DNA of 64,000 nucleotides from Clostridia bacterium (GCA_045613765.1 JAZLBO010000020.1:5193-69192), one strand, 5' to 3'. Shown: positions 41,300 to 58,054, numbered from the stretch's first letter. Notes: a model not told the origin generated them from the sequence alone. Made by a program: numbers and translations.

Positions 41300-41570
41300 T
41301 CGCTGTGCTAGATGGGGAGTTGGCGGTGCCCTGTAAACTGCAATCCGCCATAGCAGTATTGAACACCGATCGAGGCCTTCCATATGGTTGGTCGCACCAA
41401 ACAAGGAATGTTGATATCAAGGTCCGATGCAACACCGTGTCGTGAACCGTGTCAGGGCCTGACCGCAGCAGCACTAAGCGAATTTCGGCGTGTGCCATCG
41501 GGAAGCTTTGAAGGAGTCACCTATTTGGTTTCCACTTCGGTGTGGATTGTCGGAATCGGCGCACAGTATT
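41300..41570 (+). ncRNA. ffs: Signal recognition particle RNA, large Bacillus type (with Alu domain)
   Basis: Recalled similarity to B. subtilis scRNA: GCTGTGCTAGATGGGGAGTTGGCGGTGCCCTGTAAACTGCAATCCGCC at the 5' Alu domain, and CCGTGTCAGGGCCTGACCGCAGCAGCACTAAGCG (domain IV, helix 8). The 5' CTGTGC pairs with the 3' GCACAG. The ends are approximate. Confidence 0.85.
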
Positions 41571-46417: not shown

Positions 46418-48430
46418 CTATTTCTTCTGCTCTTTCTTCTTGAGTACGGCAAAGACGATTGAAAGCACAATGACACCTATGACTGCATAGGCGACGTAGA
46501 ACGCAATTATGACAATCCAGATATATTCTGTGGCAACGGCAATGCCAGCAAAAGCAAGCGCATAGATGACAAAGAGCACGAGCCACGCATCTGAGGATTC
46601 ACTTTCGTATTCTACCACTTTATAGTCAATTACTTCTTCGCCGTTGACCTTGACCGTAATTATATAGGGTATATTCTCTGCGCCATCTTCCACTGCAAAA
46701 TCAAAATTGTTGCCAGTGTGTGCCAACTGACCGTTGACATACCACTCTATTGATTGGATTGTAATTGAGGGGTCAAGATAATCCGATCTAATGCTATAGG
46801 TATAACTGTAGGTATCATTTTCTTTGACGAATATGCAAAGGTCTTCAATTTGTTGATAGACAACATTGAATACGATAGGTTCTTCTGCAACCATATATTC
46901 GTTGCCTGCCTTGTCATAAATCGCCCATGTAATTTGATATTCGCCTACTTCTTCGGGCACTTCAAAGTGCGCATACCAACCCTCTGCAAAAAGATATTCT
47001 TCTCCGTTAAAGACATACCACCATTTTACATCATAATCGTATTTCATTGTTGAAGGTGTAGGCATTGCATACAATGTGATTTCACTATCTTTGCCTACAA
47101 TGTAAGATTCTTGAGCGTCGCTGAGAATATCAACGCTTTCTTCTGCGCCAACAACGGAATTGATAAACACAACGTCGCCGTAGAAGTTGTAGGAAAGAAT
47201 ATCAGTGAGATTGAGCATTGGATATTGCTCGTACTCCAAACGGGAATTAGAGCCGTTTCGAGCGCCGTAGGGGATCATTGCACGGATTATGTCGGGTGTC
47301 AGTTCAACGTCCAATCCATAGTTGTTGTAGCCCCTAAATCTAAAGTATGCCAGAGCACTTGCAAAGGCAGTGATGGGTGTTGCCATACTTGTGCCTGTGA
47401 GCGTGCCGTATTCATCTCCGTTGATTGAAGATATTATATCTGTGCCGGGTGCTGCAATGTCATACCAAATGCCGTAGGTGGAACTGTCTGCCAAGACGGC
47501 TTTGCCGTTGCTTGTCATTTCATAGTTCATTACACCAAGGACGTTTGAGTGGGCTGCAGGATAGCCGTCGGTGTTTTTGCCTTGGTTTCCTGCTGCTGCA
47601 ACCAAAACCATATCGTCTGCTCTGTCAAAGTCATAAGATGTTTTATTGCTTGAGGTTGCAGTGAGTGAAAGGTTGACAACATCTGCGCCATTTTCATAGG
47701 CAAATTCCAATGCACTTTCAATGTTTGAACTATTGTAGCTGGCAAGGTATTCCCCGCTTTTTTTGTTGGAAAGGGTTGTGTTTGCCTTTATCGGCAAAAT
47801 CTTGATGTAGTCTTCAAGTCCAAGTTGGTGGATGAGAAGTGCCACAATGCCTGTGACGTGTGTGCCGTGATCGTTGGACGTGTTGTCAACAAGGTCAAGG
47901 GCAATGTTGCCACTGTCTGTCACTGCAGTGATTGTTTTGTCTATGAGATTAGTGTCAATCTTCACTTTGTCGGCAAAGTTTTTGTAGATATAATTGCCGT
48001 CGCCGTCCTTCAAAAGCACGTCATCAAAGATTTCGTGGAGTTTGTAGGATACACCACTGTCATAGACGTTTTCGGGGTTTACTGCCACTTCCGTTGAGAC
48101 ACTTGTCTTGTAGGCATATCCTATGCCACTGTCAATGACTGCAATTACAATGGGATCGTTTTTTAAGGTTTCTTTGTCAAAATCTGGGTCACTCAAGAAA
48201 TCTTGTACAAATGCAAGCGCACCATCAAGATTGAGATAAGTTTCGCCAAAATACCAATCTTTGTTGTCCGTTGATGGCAATGAGTTGATATGCTCGGTGT
48301 AGCCATCTTGCCAATCTGCGTAGGCAACCCCAGATGGTGCAAAAATAAATGAGCACAACAAAAGAAGGACAAATGTAATTGTTGCCAAGGACAAAATGTC
48401 GTTTCTCTTTGCTATGCTCAAATTTTTCAT
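46418..48430 (-). CDS. Membrane-anchored S8 (subtilisin-family) serine peptidase with Ig-like repeats
   Basis: 670 aa. Signal peptide, canonical triad motifs (VIDSGIG, DHGTHVTG, GTSMATP), two Ig-like modules of about 90 aa, and C-terminal TM helices with a KKKEQKK tail. Confidence 0.85.
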   Translation of the reverse strand: MKNLSIAKRNDILSLATITFVLLLLCSFIFAPSGVAYADWQDGYTEHINSLPSTDNKDWYFGETYLNLDGALAFVQDFLSDPDFDKETLKNDPIVIAVIDSGIGYAYKTSVSTEVAVNPENVYDSGVSYKLHEIFDDVLLKDGDGNYIYKNFADKVKIDTNLIDKTITAVTDSGNIALDLVDNTSNDHGTHVTGIVALLIHQLGLEDYIKILPIKANTTLSNKKSGEYLASYNSSNIESALEFAYENGADVVNLSLTATSSNKTSYDFDRADDMVLVAAAGNQGKNTDGYPAAHSNVLGVMNYEMTSNGKAVLADSSTYGIWYDIAAPGTDIISSINGDEYGTLTGTSMATPITAFASALAYFRFRGYNNYGLDVELTPDIIRAMIPYGARNGSNSRLEYEQYPMLNLTDILSYNFYGDVVFINSVVGAEESVDILSDAQESYIVGKDSEITLYAMPTPSTMKYDYDVKWWYVFNGEEYLFAEGWYAHFEVPEEVGEYQITWAIYDKAGNEYMVAEEPIVFNVVYQQIEDLCIFVKENDTYSYTYSIRSDYLDPSITIQSIEWYVNGQLAHTGNNFDFAVEDGAENIPYIITVKVNGEEVIDYKVVEYESESSDAWLVLFVIYALAFAGIAVATEYIWIVIIAFYVAYAVIGVIVLSIVFAVLKKKEQKK

Positions 48431-48492: not shown

Positions 48493-51400
48493 TTAGACAA
48501 TCTTACGCTTTTTCTTCAAAAGCAATGCAAGTGCCCATGCTCCAAAGCCCAAGGTTGAACTGCCAAGGACTGATGATGTTGCAATAAGTGCCGTCTTTGC
48601 ACCATTGTCATCATTTTCATCCACAGTGGGTGTTTGTTCTTCTTGAGTGGGAGGTGTTGTGGGTTCACCTTCGGTGACAGGAGGTGTGGGTGTTGTGTCT
48701 TCAACCGTGTGAGTTGCCACTTGTCTTTCTTGTCCGTCCACAACAACTGTGATGACGTATTCGCCGGGCATGATCAACGTGCAAGTGTAATCTGCGCCAG
48801 TTGCCACCAATATGCCGTTGAGATACCACTCTATTCCATCCACAACCGTGGGATCAAGGAGATTTTCGGGTATTGCATAGTGGACTGCTTTGTCGAAGGT
48901 TTCAACGACTTCAACGTCCACGTCTTCGGGTGCATAGTAGATCACTGCAAAGGTAAGTGCGTTGGTGCTTTGTGCGTATCTCACGCCGTCTTTGCCAACG
49001 TATGCACACTTGACAACGTAGTTGCCTACTGCGCCGGGGATTGCAAACTCAACCGTTGCGCCTGTGCCAATGATTGTTTCCTTGCCACCGACTTCGTACC
49101 ACCATGTGAGTGCGTCTTCTGTCTTGTAGTTTGAAGGATTGGTTGTTGCAGTGAGTGTGACAACTGTTGTTGTGTCGATCATATATTCATTGTCAATGAT
49201 GGTGTTGATCGTTGTGCTCTTGGGGCTATAATCCAAGACGTCAATTGACAATGTGTTTGAATTTGAAAGGGTTATATTGCCTTCGCTGTCCTTGAGTACG
49301 CAGTAGATTGTGTATGTGCCGGGCTCGGTGGGGAGAACGAAGTCAAGGGTTGCGCCTGTGCCAACTTCTGTTGTGGTTGTGCCAACTTTACACATCCACA
49401 CAAGAGTGTCGTCGGTGACTGCGTTTGTGGGATTTATGGTTGCAGTAAACGTTACTGACACACCATTGTGGTCCACCACAGAAACTGCAATGCTTTCAGG
49501 CACGTAGTTTGTCACTGCAAATGAGATTGTATCGGTTGAAACCAGTGTCTTGACACCACTTGCATTTACAAGTGCGCAATAGATTGTGTATTCGCCTATA
49601 GCATTGGGAATTGCAAACTCAACTGTCCAACCACTGCCGATTTCAAAGGTGTATTTGCCGTCTATGACGCCCCACCAATAGGGTGTGTCTGCCGTGTATT
49701 CGTCTGCGCCGATTGTTGCACTCAAAGTGACAACTGCATTGGTTTCAACTTTGTATTCACTTTCAACGCTTGCAACAACACTCAATGCATCGACTTTTGC
49801 GTATGCAGTCAAAAGGATTGTGTCATTGCCTTGGATATACAAGCCACTTTCATTGTTTGAGAGTGTGCAATAGATTTCGTATTCCCCTGCTTGATTGGGA
49901 ATTGTGAAATTGATATTCCAACCGTAGCCAATTGCGTTTGCTTTGCCGTCAAGTTGATACCACCAATAAGGTTGTTCATCTTGGAACAATCCGTTGGTTG
50001 CGATGGTTGCATTCAAGGATATTGTGTCGCCAAGATAGTGAATTGACTCTGCATTTGATGTGACGTCAATCACCGTTGAAACACCTATCAATTCAAGGAA
50101 ATCTTGATCGCCGTAGAAATCGTAAGTCAAGACGTTCTTGAAATCGAGAGCAGGATATGAGTATGTGACGTTGCCATCTTTCTTCGTTGCCACTTGATCG
50201 GAGCAATAAGGAATCATATTCTTGATGACGTCGGGCGTAAGTTCAATATCTACACCATAGTTGTCATATCCCCTATATCTAATCACTGCAAGTGCACTTG
50301 CAAATGCTGCGACGGGGGTTGAAGAACTTGTGCCACCCATAACCTTATATGAGTAGATTGAATCCAAGGTTGCGCCATAACAAGGAATGACAAGATTTTC
50401 GCCGGGAGCAGCGATGTCATACCATTCTCCGTAGGTTGAACCTGCAGTTCCATCGTACAAAACGAGATTGCCATTGCCGTCCTTCACGTAGTTCATTACG
50501 CCAAGCACGTTGTCAAAGCCTGAAGGATATCTGTGTTCAATTTGGTTTGTGTTTCCTGCAGCGCCAACAATAAGGATTTCATCTGCCAATTTTTTGTACA
50601 ATTGACTGTCTGCGGTGCCATAGGATGCGTTAACGATGTCTGCTCCGTTGTCATACGCCCATTGCAATGCCTCTTCCAATATTTTGGCTGAAAAGCCACG
50701 TTGGAAAACTCCTTTGTCATCCATCCAGAAGGAATCTCCCGCCTTGATGGGCATAATCTTCACGTAGTCTTCAACGCCAAATTGATGGATGAGATATGCA
50801 ATTATGCCACCAACGGCAACACCATGGTCGTCAAAAGATACAAGGTCGTGGGCGATGTCGCCATTGTTTTCCCACGTGTAATTAATGACCGTGCCATCTC
50901 TTCTGTCGGTGTAAACGATGTCCGTTGCAAGGTTTGCATATACGCAGTTGCCATTGGCATCGGTCAAAATGACGTCTTCAAAGATGGGGTGCATTCTAAA
51001 CGCCGTGTTGGGATTTTTTTCTATAATGGTGTGTCCAAAGCCGACTTCTTCTACAAGGTAGCCGTATTCATCGGTTGAAAATGCAACACTAAATCCGGGC
51101 TCAATGACTGCGATGACAATGGGGTCTGCCATAAGTGATGCCTTGTCAAAATTTGGATCACTCAACATGGTTTGCAATTCTACAATTGCATTGTAGATGT
51201 CAAGATATTGTTCATCAAAATACCAGTCTGCATCTGCTCCACCATTGGCGTTTGCATACGTGTCAAGATAATTTTGATAGTCTTCTTCCCAGTCGTACAC
51301 ACTTTCAGCAACGTTGAAAGCGACACTGTTGCTTTGAAGGATAATGTTGTCATTGTCATCAAAGATGACACAATAGACTGTATATCTGCCAACAACGTGA

Positions 51401-54400
51401 GGGATTGAGATTGTGACACTTGCTCCATCTCCAAATTCAACCACGTTTCCGTCAAGTTCATAGCACCAGACAATAGTGCCATCAAACACTGCATTTGTAG
51501 GGTTGACGGTTGCACTGAAAGTTGCATTGTAACTCTTGTCAACTCTATATTCGCCCGTGACATTTGAAGTGAGGGTTATACTTTCGGGGGCATAGTTGCT
51601 CACCACAAATGAGATTGCATCTGTTGAAACAAGTGTCTTGTTGCCTTGATTATCAACCAATGCACAATAGACTGTGTATTCGCCTGCAACATTGGGGATT
51701 GAGAATTCAACTGTTGCGCCTGTGCCGATTGTTGTTGCAATACCACCGAGTTCATACCACCATGTGAGTGTATCTTCGGTCACTGCCAAGGTGGGATTGA
51801 TTGTTGCAGAGAGTGTGACGACTTCGGCTGTGTCAACTTTGTATTCACTTTCAATGTCTGCACTGACTGAAATGCTTTCGGGGGCATAGTTTGTCACTGT
51901 AAAATCAATGGGATTGCTTGAAAGCAAGTAGTATGCGCCATCCGAGTTTCTATAACCACAATTGATTCTATATGTGCCAACTTCTTGAGGAACTTGAAGT
52001 TCTGCAGTAAAGCCTGTTGTGATGAAATGATACTTGTTGCCCTCGGACAAATAGAACCAAGCAAACTCGCCATCTGTATATGAATTTGCAGGAGAAACCA
52101 CTGCACTAAGCATAATCTTGTCTGTGGTGTCAACCTTGTATTCGCCCTTTGCATTTGAATAGATGGTTATGCGTTGAGGCTCATAGTAGGACACTGTAAA
52201 TGCAAGAGTATCCGTGCTTTGTGCATACATGACACCATTTTCATCAACGAGTGCACAGAAAATTTGATAACTGCCTGCTGTTGTGGGGATTTGATAGTCA
52301 ACCGACCAACCACTGCCGATTTCAAAGGTGTATTTGCCGTCCACAACGCCCCACCAATAGGGTGTATCTTCCGTATATTCGTCTGCGCCGATTGTTGCAG
52401 TGAACGTGACTGACTTGCCACTGTCAACCTTGTAATTTGCTTGCAAATTGCTGGTTACTGTGACTTTTTCAGGCAAAGGAAGTGTTGCTTTGGGCACTGA
52501 GAATTCAATGAGTTCTGCACTTCTCCTCAAATCGTATGCACTGCCTTTCCAAACGGTCAAGACGTAATAAATGTCGTAGTCGCCTTCTTCGGGAATGACG
52601 AAATTGATTTCGTTGCCTGTGCCTATGGTATATTCTATACCGTCAAGTCTATAATACCAAGTCGCATTGTCGATGCTGTCGTACTTGCCGTCTTCAACTA
52701 TTGCCATGGCACGGAGTAAGATTGTATTGCCCACTTCTTCCACGTCTTTTGCGTTGGAAAGTGCGCCAAAGTATCCACTTGCATGAATACCAACACTATT
52801 CATAAATTCGCCGTCTTTCAAGAACTCGTACGTCAAGACTGCGTTGAAATCAAGGGCAGGATATTCATACACTACTCCGTTGCCAACGTCCTTTGTTGCC
52901 ACCTTGTCGGTGCAATAAGGAATCATTTCTCTTGCAATTCTGGGAGTGATTTCAATGCCTGTGCCGTAACTGTTGTAGCCTCTATATCTAAACAGTGCGA
53001 GTGCGCTTGCAAATGATGCAACAGGGGCTGCTGCACTTGCGCCATGCATTTGCTTATATGACGCTGTATAACTTATGTGATTGCCGTAGCAAGGTGTAAC
53101 CAAGTCTTCGCCGGGGGTGGCAACGTCATACCACTCGCCATAATTTGAACCAGTATTGCTATTGGATGCGTCACCATAAAGGACAACGTTGCCGTCTTTA
53201 TCTCTTGAATAGTCCATGACACCCAAGACGTTTTCAAAGCCTGCGGGATAATGTTGGGCCATTTCGTTGTCGTTGCCTGCTGCACCGACAACAATGATAC
53301 TATCACCGTATGCACCATACAAATTGTTGTCGGCACTGCCACCAAAGGATGCATTGACGATATCTGCACCCGCTTCCTTTGCATACCTAACTGCATCATT
53401 CATGGTGTTCATATCGTATCTTGTTACGATTTGATTATTCTCGTTTCTTACGTATGCACTGTCGGCTTTGATGGGCAAGATTTTGATGTAATCTTCAAGA
53501 CCAAATTGATGTATCAAATATGCCATAACACCGGTGACACCTATGCCGTGATCGTCAACACTGACCATATCTTTGGCGATATCGCCCGTGTTGTTCCAGT
53601 AGTATGTGACCAAACTGGGATTGGGATCTGTTCCAGTCTTTTTTGGTTGATATTTAAATGTAGGTGTTGACAAATAATACACGTAGTCGCCATTTTCATC
53701 TTTTAAAAGGACGTCTTCAAAGATGGGATGGAGAACGTATTCCACTTCAACGGGGTTGATGAACATAGCAGTCAACCCTGCTCTACTGCCACTTGATTTG
53801 ATATAGCCGGAACTGATGCCCGTTTCAATTGATGCAATGATGATGGGATCTTCCTTCAATGCATCACGATCAAAGATACTATCGTTAAGCATATTTTGAA
53901 CTTCTACAATTGCATTGTAGAGATCAAGATATTGCTCATCATAATACCAGTCATCTCTTATATCGTCAGTGAAGTCATCATAGATTTCTTGCCAATCACG
54001 GCCCCATTCCACAACCCTAAATGTAAGGGCTTCTTCTGCTTTTTGCGTGCTGCCGTCATAGAGTGTTGCATAAATGACGTAGTCGCCTGCCATTTTGGGA
54101 ACTGTCATACCAAAGTCCCAACCGCTGACGGATTCAATCAAAATTCCGTTGACATAACATTCCCACTGAACGGTGCAATCTGCAAGACTTTGATCGGTGA
54201 CGTGTGCTTTGACACTAATTTCATCGCCAACTTGCATTTCGCTTTCTACGTTGGTTGTAAGTTTGAGCGTTGTGCCGTATGTAACCTCTGCACTTGCAGG
54301 GTTTGAAACAGGAGCAAATACAACTGCAAAAGTTGTCAAAAGCAAAGCAACAGCAACTATAAATATGGTTGCTGTCCAAATTCTGTTAAGTTTCGTGGTG

Positions 54401-54408
54401 TTTGTCAT
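48493..54408 (-). CDS. Giant surface protein with two subtilase-like domains (Glu at the Asp position) and about 11 Ig-like repeats, C-terminally membrane anchored
   Basis: 1971 aa. Signal/TM at the N-terminus. S8-like domain 1 (SIETGIS, DDHGIGVTG, HGASAAAP) and domain 2 (VIEPGFS, DDHGVAVGG, GGTSSSTP). Repeated modules with the WW(Y/G)...G..IP...G.Y.IYC pattern. Pro/Thr linker, then a TM helix and a KKKRKIV tail. Confidence 0.85.
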   Translation of the reverse strand: MTNTTKLNRIWTATIFIVAVALLLTTFAVVFAPVSNPASAEVTYGTTLKLTTNVESEMQVGDEISVKAHVTDQSLADCTVQWECYVNGILIESVSGWDFGMTVPKMAGDYVIYATLYDGSTQKAEEALTFRVVEWGRDWQEIYDDFTDDIRDDWYYDEQYLDLYNAIVEVQNMLNDSIFDRDALKEDPIIIASIETGISSGYIKSSGSRAGLTAMFINPVEVEYVLHPIFEDVLLKDENGDYVYYLSTPTFKYQPKKTGTDPNPSLVTYYWNNTGDIAKDMVSVDDHGIGVTGVMAYLIHQFGLEDYIKILPIKADSAYVRNENNQIVTRYDMNTMNDAVRYAKEAGADIVNASFGGSADNNLYGAYGDSIIVVGAAGNDNEMAQHYPAGFENVLGVMDYSRDKDGNVVLYGDASNSNTGSNYGEWYDVATPGEDLVTPCYGNHISYTASYKQMHGASAAAPVASFASALALFRYRGYNSYGTGIEITPRIAREMIPYCTDKVATKDVGNGVVYEYPALDFNAVLTYEFLKDGEFMNSVGIHASGYFGALSNAKDVEEVGNTILLRAMAIVEDGKYDSIDNATWYYRLDGIEYTIGTGNEINFVIPEEGDYDIYYVLTVWKGSAYDLRRSAELIEFSVPKATLPLPEKVTVTSNLQANYKVDSGKSVTFTATIGADEYTEDTPYWWGVVDGKYTFEIGSGWSVDYQIPTTAGSYQIFCALVDENGVMYAQSTDTLAFTVSYYEPQRITIYSNAKGEYKVDTTDKIMLSAVVSPANSYTDGEFAWFYLSEGNKYHFITTGFTAELQVPQEVGTYRINCGYRNSDGAYYLLSSNPIDFTVTNYAPESISVSADIESEYKVDTAEVVTLSATINPTLAVTEDTLTWWYELGGIATTIGTGATVEFSIPNVAGEYTVYCALVDNQGNKTLVSTDAISFVVSNYAPESITLTSNVTGEYRVDKSYNATFSATVNPTNAVFDGTIVWCYELDGNVVEFGDGASVTISIPHVVGRYTVYCVIFDDNDNIILQSNSVAFNVAESVYDWEEDYQNYLDTYANANGGADADWYFDEQYLDIYNAIVELQTMLSDPNFDKASLMADPIVIAVIEPGFSVAFSTDEYGYLVEEVGFGHTIIEKNPNTAFRMHPIFEDVILTDANGNCVYANLATDIVYTDRRDGTVINYTWENNGDIAHDLVSFDDHGVAVGGIIAYLIHQFGVEDYVKIMPIKAGDSFWMDDKGVFQRGFSAKILEEALQWAYDNGADIVNASYGTADSQLYKKLADEILIVGAAGNTNQIEHRYPSGFDNVLGVMNYVKDGNGNLVLYDGTAGSTYGEWYDIAAPGENLVIPCYGATLDSIYSYKVMGGTSSSTPVAAFASALAVIRYRGYDNYGVDIELTPDVIKNMIPYCSDQVATKKDGNVTYSYPALDFKNVLTYDFYGDQDFLELIGVSTVIDVTSNAESIHYLGDTISLNATIATNGLFQDEQPYWWYQLDGKANAIGYGWNINFTIPNQAGEYEIYCTLSNNESGLYIQGNDTILLTAYAKVDALSVVASVESEYKVETNAVVTLSATIGADEYTADTPYWWGVIDGKYTFEIGSGWTVEFAIPNAIGEYTIYCALVNASGVKTLVSTDTISFAVTNYVPESIAVSVVDHNGVSVTFTATINPTNAVTDDTLVWMCKVGTTTTEVGTGATLDFVLPTEPGTYTIYCVLKDSEGNITLSNSNTLSIDVLDYSPKSTTINTIIDNEYMIDTTTVVTLTATTNPSNYKTEDALTWWYEVGGKETIIGTGATVEFAIPGAVGNYVVKCAYVGKDGVRYAQSTNALTFAVIYYAPEDVDVEVVETFDKAVHYAIPENLLDPTVVDGIEWYLNGILVATGADYTCTLIMPGEYVITVVVDGQERQVATHTVEDTTPTPPVTEGEPTTPPTQEEQTPTVDENDDNGAKTALIATSSVLGSSTLGFGAWALALLLKKKRKIV
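49627..49720 (-). repeat. Near-identical intragenic repeat (partner at 52306-52399)
   Basis: 94-nt stretches differing at 6 positions by my count. They encode the TPYWWGV.DGKYTFEIGSGW core of Ig-like units 3 and 8. Confidence 0.8.
52306..52399 (-). repeat. Near-identical intragenic repeat (partner at 49627-49720)
   Basis: See the partner entry. Confidence 0.8.
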
Positions 54409-54430: not shown

Positions 54431-55228
54431 TTATATCCACTTCACCGTTCCGTCAGTGGATATCGTACCCCATTTGCCGTCCTTCTTGACTTTTGCTTCT
54501 CCATTTTCAAAGGCTGTGGCTGCATCATATTCAAAGGGGATCACAAGTGTGTTTTCCTTGTTGATATAGCCAAACTTATCCCTTTTTGCAACTGCGGCAA
54601 GACCTTCAGAGAAACTCATTGCAGTTTCGTATTCAAAAGGTATGACAACGTTGTTGTCACTGTCAATGTACCCACACTTTTCATCAAGTTCTACTGATGC
54701 AAGTCCATCACGGAAGCAAAATACTTCATCATAGGTTGCAGGTATGACAGTTTTCATGCCATCATAGAAACCCCATTTGCCACCCTTTTGAATCTTGCGC
54801 CAATCGTTGACTGACAAAGGTTCATTGAGTTTTGCAGGCTTTTCAGGTTGCTCTTTTTGCACCTTTTCTTGCTTGCCCTTTTGTCCTTTGCCCTCTTGCT
54901 TTTCAACTTTGCGAGGCTCGTTTTTGGGTGCTTTGGGGACGGCAGGTCTAAATTCCATGCCCTGTGACTTCAATGCATCTTTGAGTTCAAAGAGCATCTT
55001 CTTGTTGAAGCCTTGCACCTTGAACATATCTCTTTCAGTGCGAATACAGACGTCGCCTGCAGTGTTGATCTTGTTTTTTGCAAGAAGTTCTGCAGTTTTG
55101 ACGCTCACGCCTATATTTTCAAGGACGAGATTCATCTTTTCTGCAGGATAAAGATTGCTTTGAGTTTCTGTGTTTTGTTGCTTTGAAACTGATTTGTTTC
55201 TGTTGTGATAATAAAATTTCTTTGCCAT
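54431..55228 (-). CDS. WG/KWG-repeat protein with an N-terminal RpoA-CTD-like helix-hairpin-helix segment
   Basis: 265 aa. Contains ELLAKNKINTAGDV...VQGFNKKMLFELKDAL (alpha-CTD-like) and a Lys/Glu-rich linker. The C-terminal repeats are GKWGFYDG, KCGYIDSDNNVVIPFEYE, KFGYINKENTLVIPFEYD and GKWGTIS. Confidence 0.7.
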   Translation of the reverse strand: MAKKFYYHNRNKSVSKQQNTETQSNLYPAEKMNLVLENIGVSVKTAELLAKNKINTAGDVCIRTERDMFKVQGFNKKMLFELKDALKSQGMEFRPAVPKAPKNEPRKVEKQEGKGQKGKQEKVQKEQPEKPAKLNEPLSVNDWRKIQKGGKWGFYDGMKTVIPATYDEVFCFRDGLASVELDEKCGYIDSDNNVVIPFEYETAMSFSEGLAAVAKRDKFGYINKENTLVIPFEYDAATAFENGEAKVKKDGKWGTISTDGTVKWI

Positions 55229-55548: not shown

Positions 55549-55554
55549 TTGTGT

Positions 55555-57903
55555 ATGCTTATGAAGATGAAGAAACAATCAATCATTTCTACGTTGATTT
55601 TTGCCGTAATTTTGGTTTCGGCAGTTTTTTCGTACTCAAATATAGCCTTTGCAGACCAAGTGGAATTGCTCTACCCCAACGACGGATATGTGCAAGCAGA
55701 AAACGTTGATTGCATTGGACTGAACAATCTCTACACCGTCACTTTTGACAACGAAAATCAACTCTTGTCATACAACGGCACAAAGGTCGGCTCAATCCAA
55801 CTTGAAGACAGCGTTTCAAAGATCTTTGTCTTTGGCAACACTGCAGTTGTCAAAGGGGAAAAGGGCTTTTATTTTGTTGACTTCTCTGCAAATGAAATTT
55901 CCGTCCAATCAACCACACTTTTTGATGGGGATAGTTATCTTGCAACAGACGGCACTTCCCTTTTTGTTCACTCATACGGACAAGTGGTTGTATATGACGA
56001 GAGCATTCAAGTGGTAAGCACATATACTGACAGCATCTTCAACAACAAGCCTGTTTTGGTGGCACAAGACAACGTCATCTACGGCTTTGTGGTTGAACAC
56101 GGCATCAGTATTGTTTACACCTACGATACACTGACTGGCGAAGCACATAGTTTCATCAAAGACACAGTCATAAAAGGTGCAGTGGCAGGTGGCACAATCT
56201 TTGGCTACAATGGGGAAAATATCATACTCGTTGACAAGAAAAATATACCTGTTGATGACGGCACTCTTGACTTTGTTGCAACAGATATAAGCGAGCAAAA
56301 TTTCACTGCTTTTGGCGACTATCTTTACATTGCAAAAAGCAAGGACGGATTTGACAAATTTGCATATCAAAATGGCGCTCTCACATTTGTTGGAAACTAC
56401 TCCTACACAGGCAGTGGCCTTGACAAGTTGAACAACCCTTCATCAGTGGCAACAATGAAAGACGAACTCATCATTGCAGACACTTCAAACAATCGTATTC
56501 TCTATGTGGGCGACGAGGTTGTGGCTCTTGAAATGGACGCCCCTACACTCATCACTGCAAGCAAAAATAGACTGTATGTTTTGACATCAAACGGCATTGC
56601 AATCGTTGACAACAAAACCGTTGTAAGCACAATCAAAACAAGCGTTGAAATCCATGATATGATTTACACTGACGGATTGTATGTTTTGGCAGAAAACGGG
56701 GTTTATATACTCATAGGTGGCAGTTTAATCAAGGTTATTGACGTAAATGACTGCTTTGCCTTTGCATCAAACTCATTGATTTACACTCTCAATTCAACTG
56801 GTGTTAAGGTCTTTGATTTTGACGGAAATGAAAACGAACTTTTGTCCTTTGTAGTTGATGGATACACCCCTCTTGACCTTCTTGTTGACGTGGTTGGCAA
56901 TGTGTATATTCTTGGTGACGACAATGCAGTCCACGTATATAAATGGCAAGATATAATAAGTGCAAATATCAGTGGCAACACCACTCTTTCAACTGAAATT
57001 TCCATCGACTCAACAACGTACAATTTCAGTGCACAATCAATGTTTGAAATTGATGAAAAACTTGTATTTGCAACAACAGAAAATGCTTTGATTTCTCTTG
57101 ATAATCCCCTTGTAAAAACCGTTGAAAACGGTGTGTCTATTGACACTGCAAACTACGGTGCAGACACATACGTTACAACTGAAAGCGCATACTTTATAAC
57201 CAATGAAAATGACGGCACAACTGCAATGAAAATTGACAGTGAAATAATACTGATTTGCTACGAAGTTGAGGGTATGCTTTACACCTCTATTGACGGCAAA
57301 AAGGGTTGGATTTTTGGCGCTGACAAGGTCATAGAAGACACTGCTTGCGCAGGCGAATATATTGCAAAGGCAGACATCAAGTTGTATGCAAATCCTATGG
57401 TTGACAGTGGCATAACCGTAAAGAAAGGCACTGCTCTCAACGTGATTGACAATGCAGGTGGATATGATGGCAACAAGTGGGTGCGTGTGGAATACAACGG
57501 CAAGACCTACTACACTGAAAGCAGTGGACTTCAAAAGAAATCATCAGCCACTATCCTTCCTGAAATACCCAAACCTGAAAAGCCTGAAAAGGTTGACACT
57601 GAATACGGCAGAGCCAAAGCATCACGTGCAGGGGAACTTGTGTCACTCTACTCTCTTGACGGCTCAACCGTTGTTACAAGCGTTGCAGACGGCACAAAAC
57701 TTGAAGTGGTTGAAAAGATTGGGGAATACTTTAAAGTCAAGCACGACGGGAGCGAGGTTCTCATCCACCAAGATCATTTCAAACTTGACGGATTGACAAC
57801 GGTGCAAATCGTTGCAATCATATTGTCCGTGGTTGTTGTGCTTACAGGTGGACTTATTTTTGCAGTGACTTCTCTGTCAAAGAAAAAAGAAGAAAACCAA
57901 TAA
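55555..57903 (+). CDS. Secreted, membrane-anchored beta-propeller (NHL-like) protein with C-terminal SH3b-like domains
   Basis: Signal peptide. NHL-like repeat (LIIADTSNNRILYV). SH3b-like segments (GEYIAKADIKLYANP...NKWVRVEYNGKTYY; ELVSLYSLDGS...YFKVKHDG). A TM helix and a KKKEENQ tail. The start could be ATG 55555, 55561 or 55567. Confidence 0.72.
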   Translation: MLMKMKKQSIISTLIFAVILVSAVFSYSNIAFADQVELLYPNDGYVQAENVDCIGLNNLYTVTFDNENQLLSYNGTKVGSIQLEDSVSKIFVFGNTAVVKGEKGFYFVDFSANEISVQSTTLFDGDSYLATDGTSLFVHSYGQVVVYDESIQVVSTYTDSIFNNKPVLVAQDNVIYGFVVEHGISIVYTYDTLTGEAHSFIKDTVIKGAVAGGTIFGYNGENIILVDKKNIPVDDGTLDFVATDISEQNFTAFGDYLYIAKSKDGFDKFAYQNGALTFVGNYSYTGSGLDKLNNPSSVATMKDELIIADTSNNRILYVGDEVVALEMDAPTLITASKNRLYVLTSNGIAIVDNKTVVSTIKTSVEIHDMIYTDGLYVLAENGVYILIGGSLIKVIDVNDCFAFASNSLIYTLNSTGVKVFDFDGNENELLSFVVDGYTPLDLLVDVVGNVYILGDDNAVHVYKWQDIISANISGNTTLSTEISIDSTTYNFSAQSMFEIDEKLVFATTENALISLDNPLVKTVENGVSIDTANYGADTYVTTESAYFITNENDGTTAMKIDSEIILICYEVEGMLYTSIDGKKGWIFGADKVIEDTACAGEYIAKADIKLYANPMVDSGITVKKGTALNVIDNAGGYDGNKWVRVEYNGKTYYTESSGLQKKSSATILPEIPKPEKPEKVDTEYGRAKASRAGELVSLYSLDGSTVVTSVADGTKLEVVEKIGEYFKVKHDGSEVLIHQDHFKLDGLTTVQIVAIILSVVVVLTGGLIFAVTSLSKKKEENQ

Positions 57904-57977: not shown

Positions 57978-58054
57978 ATGGGTGTGGCGCAGTTTGGTAG
58001 CGCGCTTGAATGGGGTTCAAGAGGTCGGGGGTTCAAGTCCCTTCACCCATACCA
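57978..58054 (+). tRNA. tRNA-Pro (anticodon GGG), CCA-encoded
   Basis: Manual cloverleaf. Acceptor ATGGGTG/CACCCAT, D arm GCGC-AGTTTGGTA-GCGC, anticodon arm CTTGA-ATGGGGT-TCAAG, variable loop AGGTC, T arm GGGGG-TTCAAGT-CCCTT, discriminator A and CCA. Confidence 0.88.

Follow-up and report, generated by a model that had tools for sequence, protein, structure and literature searches.

A single gene in a 64,000-nt stretch of DNA from a Clostridia bacterium (GCA_045613765.1 JAZLBO010000020.1:5193-69192; the entire stretch is called the window below) encodes a modular, probably surface-located protein of 1971 aa with two S8 (subtilase) modules, both of which carry Glu at the position of the catalytic Asp (48493..54408, minus strand). 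By homology and fold, this giant protein is a member of the S8 family, yet it departs from the family-defining Asp-His-Ser residues. Based on comparative sequence analysis and structural models, we favor, with moderate confidence, the interpretation that both modules would be functional proteases with a Glu-His-Ser triad, in which the acid can be Glu or Asp. This interpretation is favored because His, Asn, and Ser of the active site do not vary, only Asp and Glu occur as the acid, the selection on the modules resembles that on a canonical paralog, and a composition of two Glu-type modules and one Asp-type module is conserved in the locus.

Catalytic residues and fold of the two modules

The open reading frame (ORF) of the giant protein starts with ATG and contains zero internal stop codons. 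In its product, Pfam detected PF00082 in two stretches, with 148.4 bits versus a cut-off of 21.8, and the same family was found once in a 670-aa paralog, which is encoded in the same direction 62 nt downstream of the giant gene (46418..48430, minus strand). The initial annotation of the window had described this neighbor as canonical, with the motifs VIDSGIG, DHGTHVTG, and GTSMATP, which proved correct. The paralog has the Asp-His-Asn-Ser pattern (D-H-N-S; the oxyanion-hole Asn is included here as the third residue). The same annotation had pointed to Glu195 and Glu1103 of the giant protein as replacements of the catalytic Asp, and translation confirmed the positions of all motifs as well as both codons.

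Module 1 comprises aa 135-545 (52774..54006; the giant gene and all its features are on the minus strand) and contains the motifs SIETGIS at aa 193, DDHGIGV at aa 285, and HGASAAAP at aa 455. Glu195 (codon GAA, 53824..53826) is located at the position of the catalytic Asp32, His287 (53548..53550) corresponds to His64, Asn379 (53272..53274) to the oxyanion-hole Asn155, and Ser458 (53035..53037), in the context G-A-S-A-A, to the nucleophile Ser221. In module 2 (aa 1040-1446, 50071..51291), the motifs are VIEPGFS at aa 1101, DDHGVAV at aa 1193, and GGTSSSTP at aa 1358; Glu1103 (codon GAG, 51100..51102) is found at the Asp32 position, and His1195 (50824..50826), Asn1286 (50551..50553), and Ser1361 (50326..50328, in the context G-T-S-S-S) are the equivalents of His64, the oxyanion-hole Asn, and the nucleophile, respectively. 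The Asn is part of a GAAGN motif in both modules. Thus, both modules are E-H-N-S compared with the usual D-H-N-S of S8 proteases, and, of these four residues, the acid alone is changed.

The delimitation of both modules is based on Pfam, alignments, AlphaFold2 (AF2) models, and Foldseek searches, and the assignment of the individual residues on alignments. When the paralog and both modules were aligned together, the two Glu residues fell into the Asp column, within an invariant context DPI-IA-I[D/E]-G; the identity of each module to the paralog is 41-42%. A hidden Markov model (HMM) alignment of more than 50 related domains also placed Glu195 and Glu1103 in the column of the catalytic Asp, and it confirmed that the His and Ser motifs, although diverged, are retained, with His287/Ser458 and His1195/Ser1361 in the family columns. 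When a profile of the clade was compared to the PDB, "sietGi" was aligned to "VIDTGC" of the intracellular subtilisin 7xr8, co-linear with the main match, although this piece is weak when taken alone (independent E-value, i-E, of the domain 22). Searches of the PDB with single sequences left the N-terminal third of the domains unaligned. The acid motif remained unaligned to solved structures in these searches because an insert of about 90 residues separates the acid from the His. This beta-rich insert (aa 196-284 of the giant protein, about 53557-53823) is present throughout the whole family, including the canonical paralogs. Another Asp at the catalytic position would have argued against the proposed equivalence, and there is none.

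The AF2 model of module 2 has a predicted local distance difference test (pLDDT) score of 90.4 and a predicted template modelling (pTM) score of 0.91, and the mean pLDDT of the model of module 1 together with two repeats is 85.4. The positions of the residues in the models were read from the DSSP secondary structure. In both models, the first core beta-strand terminates in Glu, and the His as well as the Ser are each located at the start of a helix (His287 as its first residue), which is the canonical subtilisin topology. Foldseek matched module 2 to thermitase and subtilisins with an E-value of about 1e-14, and module 1 with the repeats to subtilisins (TMt up to 0.73), Vpr, and a streptococcal S8 protease; the E-values for both modules ranged from 1e-12 to 1e-14. 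Taken together, the family score, the fold, the His and Ser motifs in the order acid-His-Ser, and the oxyanion-hole Asn are those of an S8 protease, and only the catalytic Asp is missing.

One element described earlier has to be reinterpreted. A W..DW..DWYFDEQYLD stretch indeed precedes each Glu, as had been noticed, but it is not a separate module; rather, it constitutes the helical N-terminal portion of the S8 domain. It was modelled with pLDDT values of 83-98, occurs in the canonical paralog as well, and is not specific to the Glu-type domains.

Asp and Glu at the acid position of related subtilases

Among the canonical relatives of the HGTH type, Asp was found in 95 of 95 cases in the first homolog search, and 116 D-H-N-S domains were aligned later. 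The first search was word-indexed and missed the giant protein and the related proteins P0111 and P0112, although all three were in the collection. Because these multi-module relatives were missed, Glu would wrongly seem unique to the giant protein from that search alone, and the impression of a family with Asp throughout was incomplete and was revised. In the revised survey, Glu recurs in a second strain, in multi-module relatives, and in separate single-domain genes. The E-H-N-S pattern is present in both modules of the giant protein (two strains), the protein of locus L007, module 3 of P0111, and module 2 of P0112, as well as in every member of the P0253 cluster (8 full-length sequences and 3 fragments) and of the P0254 cluster (11 sequences). 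The fragments of the P0133 cluster represent the N-terminal part of the Glu-type P0253 lineage; one of them, P0249 (221 aa, from an ENA contig of 880 nt), leaves the reading frame after about residue 160, owing either to an error of assembly or to a frameshift in the allele.

In related loci, as in the window, one or more S8 genes are located upstream of the canonical S8 gene, and the modules that they encode form a monophyletic group (100% bootstrap support), called the upstream clade below. Trees were constructed by neighbor-joining with Kimura-corrected distances and 500 bootstraps, and the Asp/Glu column was left out. Within the upstream clade, D-H-N-S is found in P0001, modules 1 and 2 of P0111, module 1 of P0112, the L004 and P0252 proteins, and P0113, and a Glu-bearing subclade that includes both modules of the giant protein has 94% bootstrap support. 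Mapping of the states onto the upstream clade requires at least five changes between Asp and Glu, and a third residue was never observed. Of the seven nonsynonymous single-base changes of a Glu codon (GAA or GAG) that do not generate a stop, only two lead to Asp. The exclusive exchange of Asp and Glu therefore points to selection for a carboxylate, which is a rough argument and not a formal test.

A second feature shared by the upstream clade is the loss of His67, with HGTH being replaced by HG[VITL][GSA] in every member. P0115, which is located just outside of the clade, has HGIHV and thus retains His67, together with Asp. Because all clade members have lost His67 while this outside protein has kept both, the distribution suggests that the loss of His67 may have been permissive for the interchange of Asp and Glu.

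The canonical Asp-type gene always follows the upstream S8 gene(s) in the relatives. In another species, the same syntenic locus contains two separate Glu-type genes and one Asp-type gene. Therefore, the E,E,D composition is conserved irrespective of whether the Glu-type modules are fused.

Next, the constraint on the modules is considered. A second strain, from an independent sample, encodes an intact 1971-aa version that differs at 141 residues and shares both Glu codons; in addition, the exact 1971-aa protein is on record in an NCBI genome contig. Between the two strains, the ratio of nonsynonymous to synonymous substitution rates (dN/dS) is 0.26 for the whole gene, 0.36 for module 1, and 0.14 for module 2, compared with 0.23-0.32 for the canonical paralog and 0.09-0.16 for the housekeeping gene GPR. 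Low values are also observed across the Asp/Glu exchange: module 1 of the giant protein (GAA) and module 2 of P0111 (GAC, Asp) are 91.6% identical with a dN/dS of 0.20, and the L007 protein (GAA) and P0001 (GAC) are 88% identical with a dN/dS of 0.15 in the catalytic part. In the more distant pair of module 2 of the giant protein and module 3 of P0111 (64% identity, dS 1.56, dN/dS 0.16), Glu (GAG) was kept in both. The loci L035 and L036 are identical in both Glu-type genes, so that dN/dS was not computable there. Altogether, purifying selection on the giant modules is similar to or stronger than that on the canonical paralog.

Several points weigh against active Glu-His-Ser triads. In subtilisin, the absence of Asp32 results in an about 10^4-fold loss of kcat, and the longer side chain of Glu could misplace the carboxylate. 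An I9 propeptide was not detected by Pfam in the giant modules, module 1 has Ala at the Thr220 position, and the residues directly after Glu deviate from the usual Ser/Thr-Gly of S8 proteases, with Pro in module 2 and Ala-Ser in module 3 of P0111. Furthermore, the two Asp "reversions" are each derived from a single metagenome assembly, and the trees were calculated by neighbor-joining, not by maximum likelihood. The canonical definition of the S8 family is Asp-His-Ser (PMC5371821), and the work on Csp proteins showed that protease activity does not necessarily follow from an intact triad (PMC7200643).

Four of these points, the missing I9 propeptide, the Ala at Thr220, the Pro after Glu, and the precedent of the Csp triads, keep alive the main alternative, namely that the modules are pseudoproteases, S8 folds that have ceased to cleave and instead serve the neighboring canonical S8 protease through binding of peptides or proteins or through regulation, as CspA and CspC do for CspB. 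We regard this alternative as rather unlikely. It is in accord with the replacement of the canonical acid and with further deviations from the consensus motifs (HGTH to HG[IV][GA], GTSMA to GASAA or GTSSS, and D[ST]G to EPG in module 2), and a canonical paralog is always encoded next to the Glu-type genes; moreover, CspBA is a clostridial precedent for a protease-pseudoprotease fusion (PMC7200643). However, active kexins and pyrolysins exist with HGTR, HG[TS][HFA], and GTSAAA (PMC5371821), and therefore the loss of His67 and Met222 does not by itself imply inactivity. Furthermore, the His, the oxyanion-hole Asn, and the Ser are invariant in every Glu-type module, whereas the known Csp pseudoproteases have lost His and/or Ser. 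At an unconstrained site, other residues should have appeared in the course of at least five changes, and the dN/dS values are equal to or below those of the canonical paralog. How lost catalysis looks in this family is exemplified by P0116, the 692-aa product of a third S8 gene in locus L034 (13465-15543), with five sequences on record: it has the pattern D-H-D-G, in which the oxyanion-hole Asn is replaced by Asp and the nucleophile Ser by Gly, and is a probable true pseudoprotease. The pattern of the Glu-type modules is different. Thus, of the two options considered in the initial annotation, a variant E-H-S triad and non-catalytic binding modules, the former is favored and the latter disfavored, on the grounds of an acid that is only Asp or Glu, the invariant His, Asn, and Ser, and a constraint like that on the paralog.

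A further alternative, to which we assign a small probability, is that the Glu forms are active but attenuated or shifted in their pH dependence, and that the toggling between Asp and Glu reflects adaptive tuning or diversification. The switches indeed occur on very shallow branches between strains, and in a locus with strongly varying architecture (699, 1179, 1418, 1971, or 2985 aa, or split genes). On the other hand, consistent compensatory changes at the flanking residues were not found, pairs with IASIETG and IASIDTG differing at the acid site only, and these data do not separate tuning from neutrality.

Gene decay, a chimeric assembly, and a sequencing error are effectively excluded as explanations: although repeat-rich genes are often misassembled and several related contigs break within the giant gene, the same architecture with both Glu codons was recovered from an independent sample with 141 differing residues, stop codons and frameshifts are absent, the overall dN/dS is 0.26, and, contrary to a strain-specific change in a decaying gene, Glu is found in at least six lineages and about 25 sequences with dN/dS values of 0.14-0.36.

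According to the favored interpretation of working Glu-His-Ser proteases, the giant protein would be exported via the Sec pathway, anchored in the membrane at its C-terminus, and would present two S8 modules on stalks of immunoglobulin (Ig)-like repeats of about 95 aa. Each module would operate with the retained nucleophile Ser, general-base His, and oxyanion-hole Asn, and Glu would replace Asp as the acid that orients and polarizes the His. The upstream S8 genes, in tandem with the canonical S8 gene, have lost His67, and Asp and Glu would have become interchangeable in them. The role may be extracellular or surface proteolysis, with presumed substrates in, for example, protein foraging or the processing of surface proteins. 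A more comprehensive proposition, for which we consider the balance to be about even, is that the upstream clade, with Asp and Glu freely interchangeable after the loss of His67, would comprise the first functional Glu-His-Ser subtilases, with one, two, or three catalytic heads carried by hypervariable stalks of Ig-like repeats in one conserved locus of gut Clostridia. In the literature searched (full texts, with incomplete coverage), neither Glu-His-Ser subtilases nor a subtilisin D32E variant nor tandem S8 modules other than CspBA were reported. The Glu/Asp-interchangeable triad would be a variant within the known S8 subtilases, the novelty of which is not proven by such a literature search.

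Surveys of S8 proteases routinely discard sequences with residues other than Asp-His-Ser as pseudogenes (PMC5371821). If the Glu-type modules are active, this rule mislabels real enzymes. The natural Asp/Glu pairs with 88-92% identity would be a ready-made experiment on the triad acid in the subtilisin fold, and an interchangeable acid, if true, would be useful for understanding the role of this residue and for protease engineering.

Protein architecture and variation of the locus

At its N-terminus, the giant protein has a predicted Sec-type signal peptide or anchor (aa 1-40, ...PASA/EV, 54289..54408) with a hydrophobic window at aa 6-20; the putative cleavage site is deduced from an A-x-A motif. 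The Ig-like repeats, which are all-beta and about 95 aa in length, are present in ten clear copies, as revealed by a repeat HMM. One precedes module 1 (repeat 1, aa 48-133, 54010..54267, i-E 2e-27), five follow module 1 (repeats 2-6, aa 548-1034, 51307..52767, i-E 1e-28 to 1e-39), and four follow module 2 (repeats 7-10, aa 1447-1823, 48940..50070, i-E 3e-30 to 4e-36), in agreement with the earlier description of Ig-like runs after each catalytic domain. The first two of repeats 2-6 are all-beta in the AF2 model. The consensus of the repeat is roughly ES..V.A...SEYKVDT...V.L.ATI.P......D.L.WWYE..G....IG.G..VEF.IP...GEY.IYCAL. No Pfam family matched the repeat above the threshold, with only Cupredoxin_1, N_BRCA1_IG, DUF4625, and Big_3_2 below it, and the repeat is probably an undescribed family. 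The small canonical paralog also contains one copy (aa 433-524, 46859-47134, minus strand).

The repeats are followed by a divergent beta domain of the "IEWYLNG" type (aa 1833-1905, 48694..48912), which was recognized by a weak match to the repeat HMM and by conserved columns, and which is common to the giant protein, the small paralog, and the orthologs. The protein ends with a linker rich in Pro and Thr (aa 1906-1938) and a hydrophobic segment with a KKKRKIV tail (aa 1939-1971; both together 48496..48693). The C-terminus, ...NDDNGAKTALIATSS...LLLKKKRKIV, does not contain an LPXTG motif, and similar endings are found in P0001, the upstream protein of L004, and P0111. In the Pfam scan of the giant protein a PA domain was not detected, as was the case for I9. 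From this layout, the protein is probably exported via the Sec pathway and anchored in the membrane at its C-terminus.

Directly upstream of the giant gene, at a distance of 22 nt and in the same direction, a 265-aa protein is encoded (54431..55228, minus strand). It consists of a helix-hairpin-helix domain similar to the C-terminal domain of the RNA polymerase alpha subunit (alpha-CTD), a linker rich in Lys and Glu, and three WG_beta_rep repeats. Every related locus has this gene immediately ahead of its S8 genes, which makes a common operon with the giant gene probable. The adjacent divergent gene (55549-57903, plus strand) encodes a 784-aa protein with a signal peptide, NHL-like or beta-propeller-like repeats, two SH3_3 domains, and a C-terminal hydrophobic segment, and it adjoins the S8 cluster in all relatives. 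The order of the locus, that is, SH3_3/NHL gene (divergent), alpha-CTD/WG-repeat gene, upstream S8 gene(s), canonical S8 gene of about 670 aa, rpsT, gpr, a putative racemase gene, and an EF-G-like gene, is conserved among uncultured Clostridia of gut metagenomes.

The upstream S8 position itself is highly variable. It is empty in L006 and is occupied by a 699-aa single-module protein in L001 (P0001, 3465-5564) and L007, by an 1179-aa single-module protein with more repeats in L004 (6414-9953), by a 1418-aa two-module protein in L034 (P0112, 6001-10257), by the 1971-aa two-module protein in the window, and by a 2985-aa three-module protein with 16 repeats in L033 (P0111, 6001-14958). In L035 (3421-7918), two separate single-module genes of 792 and 682 aa are found instead. 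Altogether, the upstream proteins have one to three S8 modules and 2 to 16 Ig-like repeats. Even the P0111 strain, whose small paralog is 91% identical to that of the window, differs from the window by a whole catalytic module. In the contigs L025-L030, which were selected by the closest small paralogs, the part of the upstream gene that is present comprises Ig-like repeats but no catalytic module, and hence these contigs do not contain information about Asp or Glu. The locus thus looks like a hotspot of modular rearrangement, and it is an example of very fast modular evolution in a bacterial surface protein, in which closely related gut strains differ by fusion or fission of catalytic modules and by the expansion of repeats.

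An internal duplication as the source of the two modules of the giant protein was considered and rejected. The modules are 47% identical to each other and 55-57% identical to single-module orthologs, and they were sisters in 0% of the 500 bootstraps. The simplest account that we infer is a fusion or fission of tandem genes.

An Rfam scan of the window detected a large bacterial signal recognition particle (SRP) RNA with 156.7 bits (41303-41566, plus strand) and one tRNA gene (57978-58051, plus strand), both of which are ordinary.

Comparison with known systems

In unrelated folds, the acid of a catalytic triad can be either Asp or Glu, and both versions occur in active enzymes of the alpha/beta-hydrolases (e.g., acetylcholinesterase) and among the picornaviral 3C proteases. 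To our knowledge, an interchange of Asp and Glu as the triad acid in the subtilisin fold has no precedent. If the proposed interpretation is true, the subtilisin scaffold, like that of the alpha/beta-hydrolases, accepts either acid once the neighboring His67 has changed.

The giant modules share the fold, the order of the catalytic residues, and the motifs and topology of His, Asn, and Ser with the subtilisins and thermitase of the S8A type (1THM, Ak.1 protease 1DBI, subtilisin BPN', and savinase). They differ by Glu instead of Asp, the insert of about 90 residues, HG[IV][GA], the replacement of Met222 by Ala or Ser, and the lack of a detectable I9 propeptide, and the whole protein differs by the presence of two catalytic modules per chain and about ten Ig-like repeats.

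In the sedolisins (S53), an Asp acts in the oxyanion hole. Sedolisins also combine the subtilisin fold with an active-site Glu, but their triad is Ser-Glu-Asp, with Glu in place of His (PMC5371821). The giant modules are not sedolisins, as both retain His and Asn, and as Glu is in the Asp32 column, not in the His64 column. The mycosins are S8 proteases with a C-terminal membrane anchor and yielded the best NCBIfam match; however, the score of TIGR03921 was 130.5 bits versus a cut-off of 278.75, a type VII secretion system context is absent, and the acid residue as well as the architecture are different.

CspBA of Clostridioides difficile resembles the giant protein in that a single clostridial polypeptide harbors two subtilase domains, and in CspBA one of the two active sites is non-canonical (PMC7200643). 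Csp proteins, however, have prodomains, are located in the spore, lack a signal peptide or anchor, and have lost His and/or Ser (Thr170/Gly485; Gln757/Ala1064) (PMC7200643), whereas the giant protein keeps His and Ser and has changed only Asp to Glu. Identity with CspBA or another Csp protein was rejected also because the giant protein is not matched by the NCBIfam model of CspBA, NF040809, for which the paralog reached 25 bits versus a cut-off of 1250, and because Pfam did not detect a prodomain.

Large, secreted, multidomain S8 proteases that are retained at the surface and contain beta-sandwich spacers are represented by the lactocepin PrtP, the streptococcal C5a peptidase, and Vpr. Cell-envelope proteinases typically have a PA-domain insert and an LPXTG anchor. 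The giant protein is not an LPXTG-type cell-envelope proteinase, as it has neither a Pfam PA domain nor an LPXTG motif, and as the SGO_0316 LPXTG peptidase model reached only 15 bits, for the paralog only. PrtP, the C5a peptidase, and Vpr contain just one catalytic domain, which has the canonical Asp, whereas the family of the giant protein has up to three modules and a hydrophobic C-terminal anchor. Functionally, the giant protein most resembles these large surface subtilases, with multiple heads and a triad acid that can be Glu or Asp.

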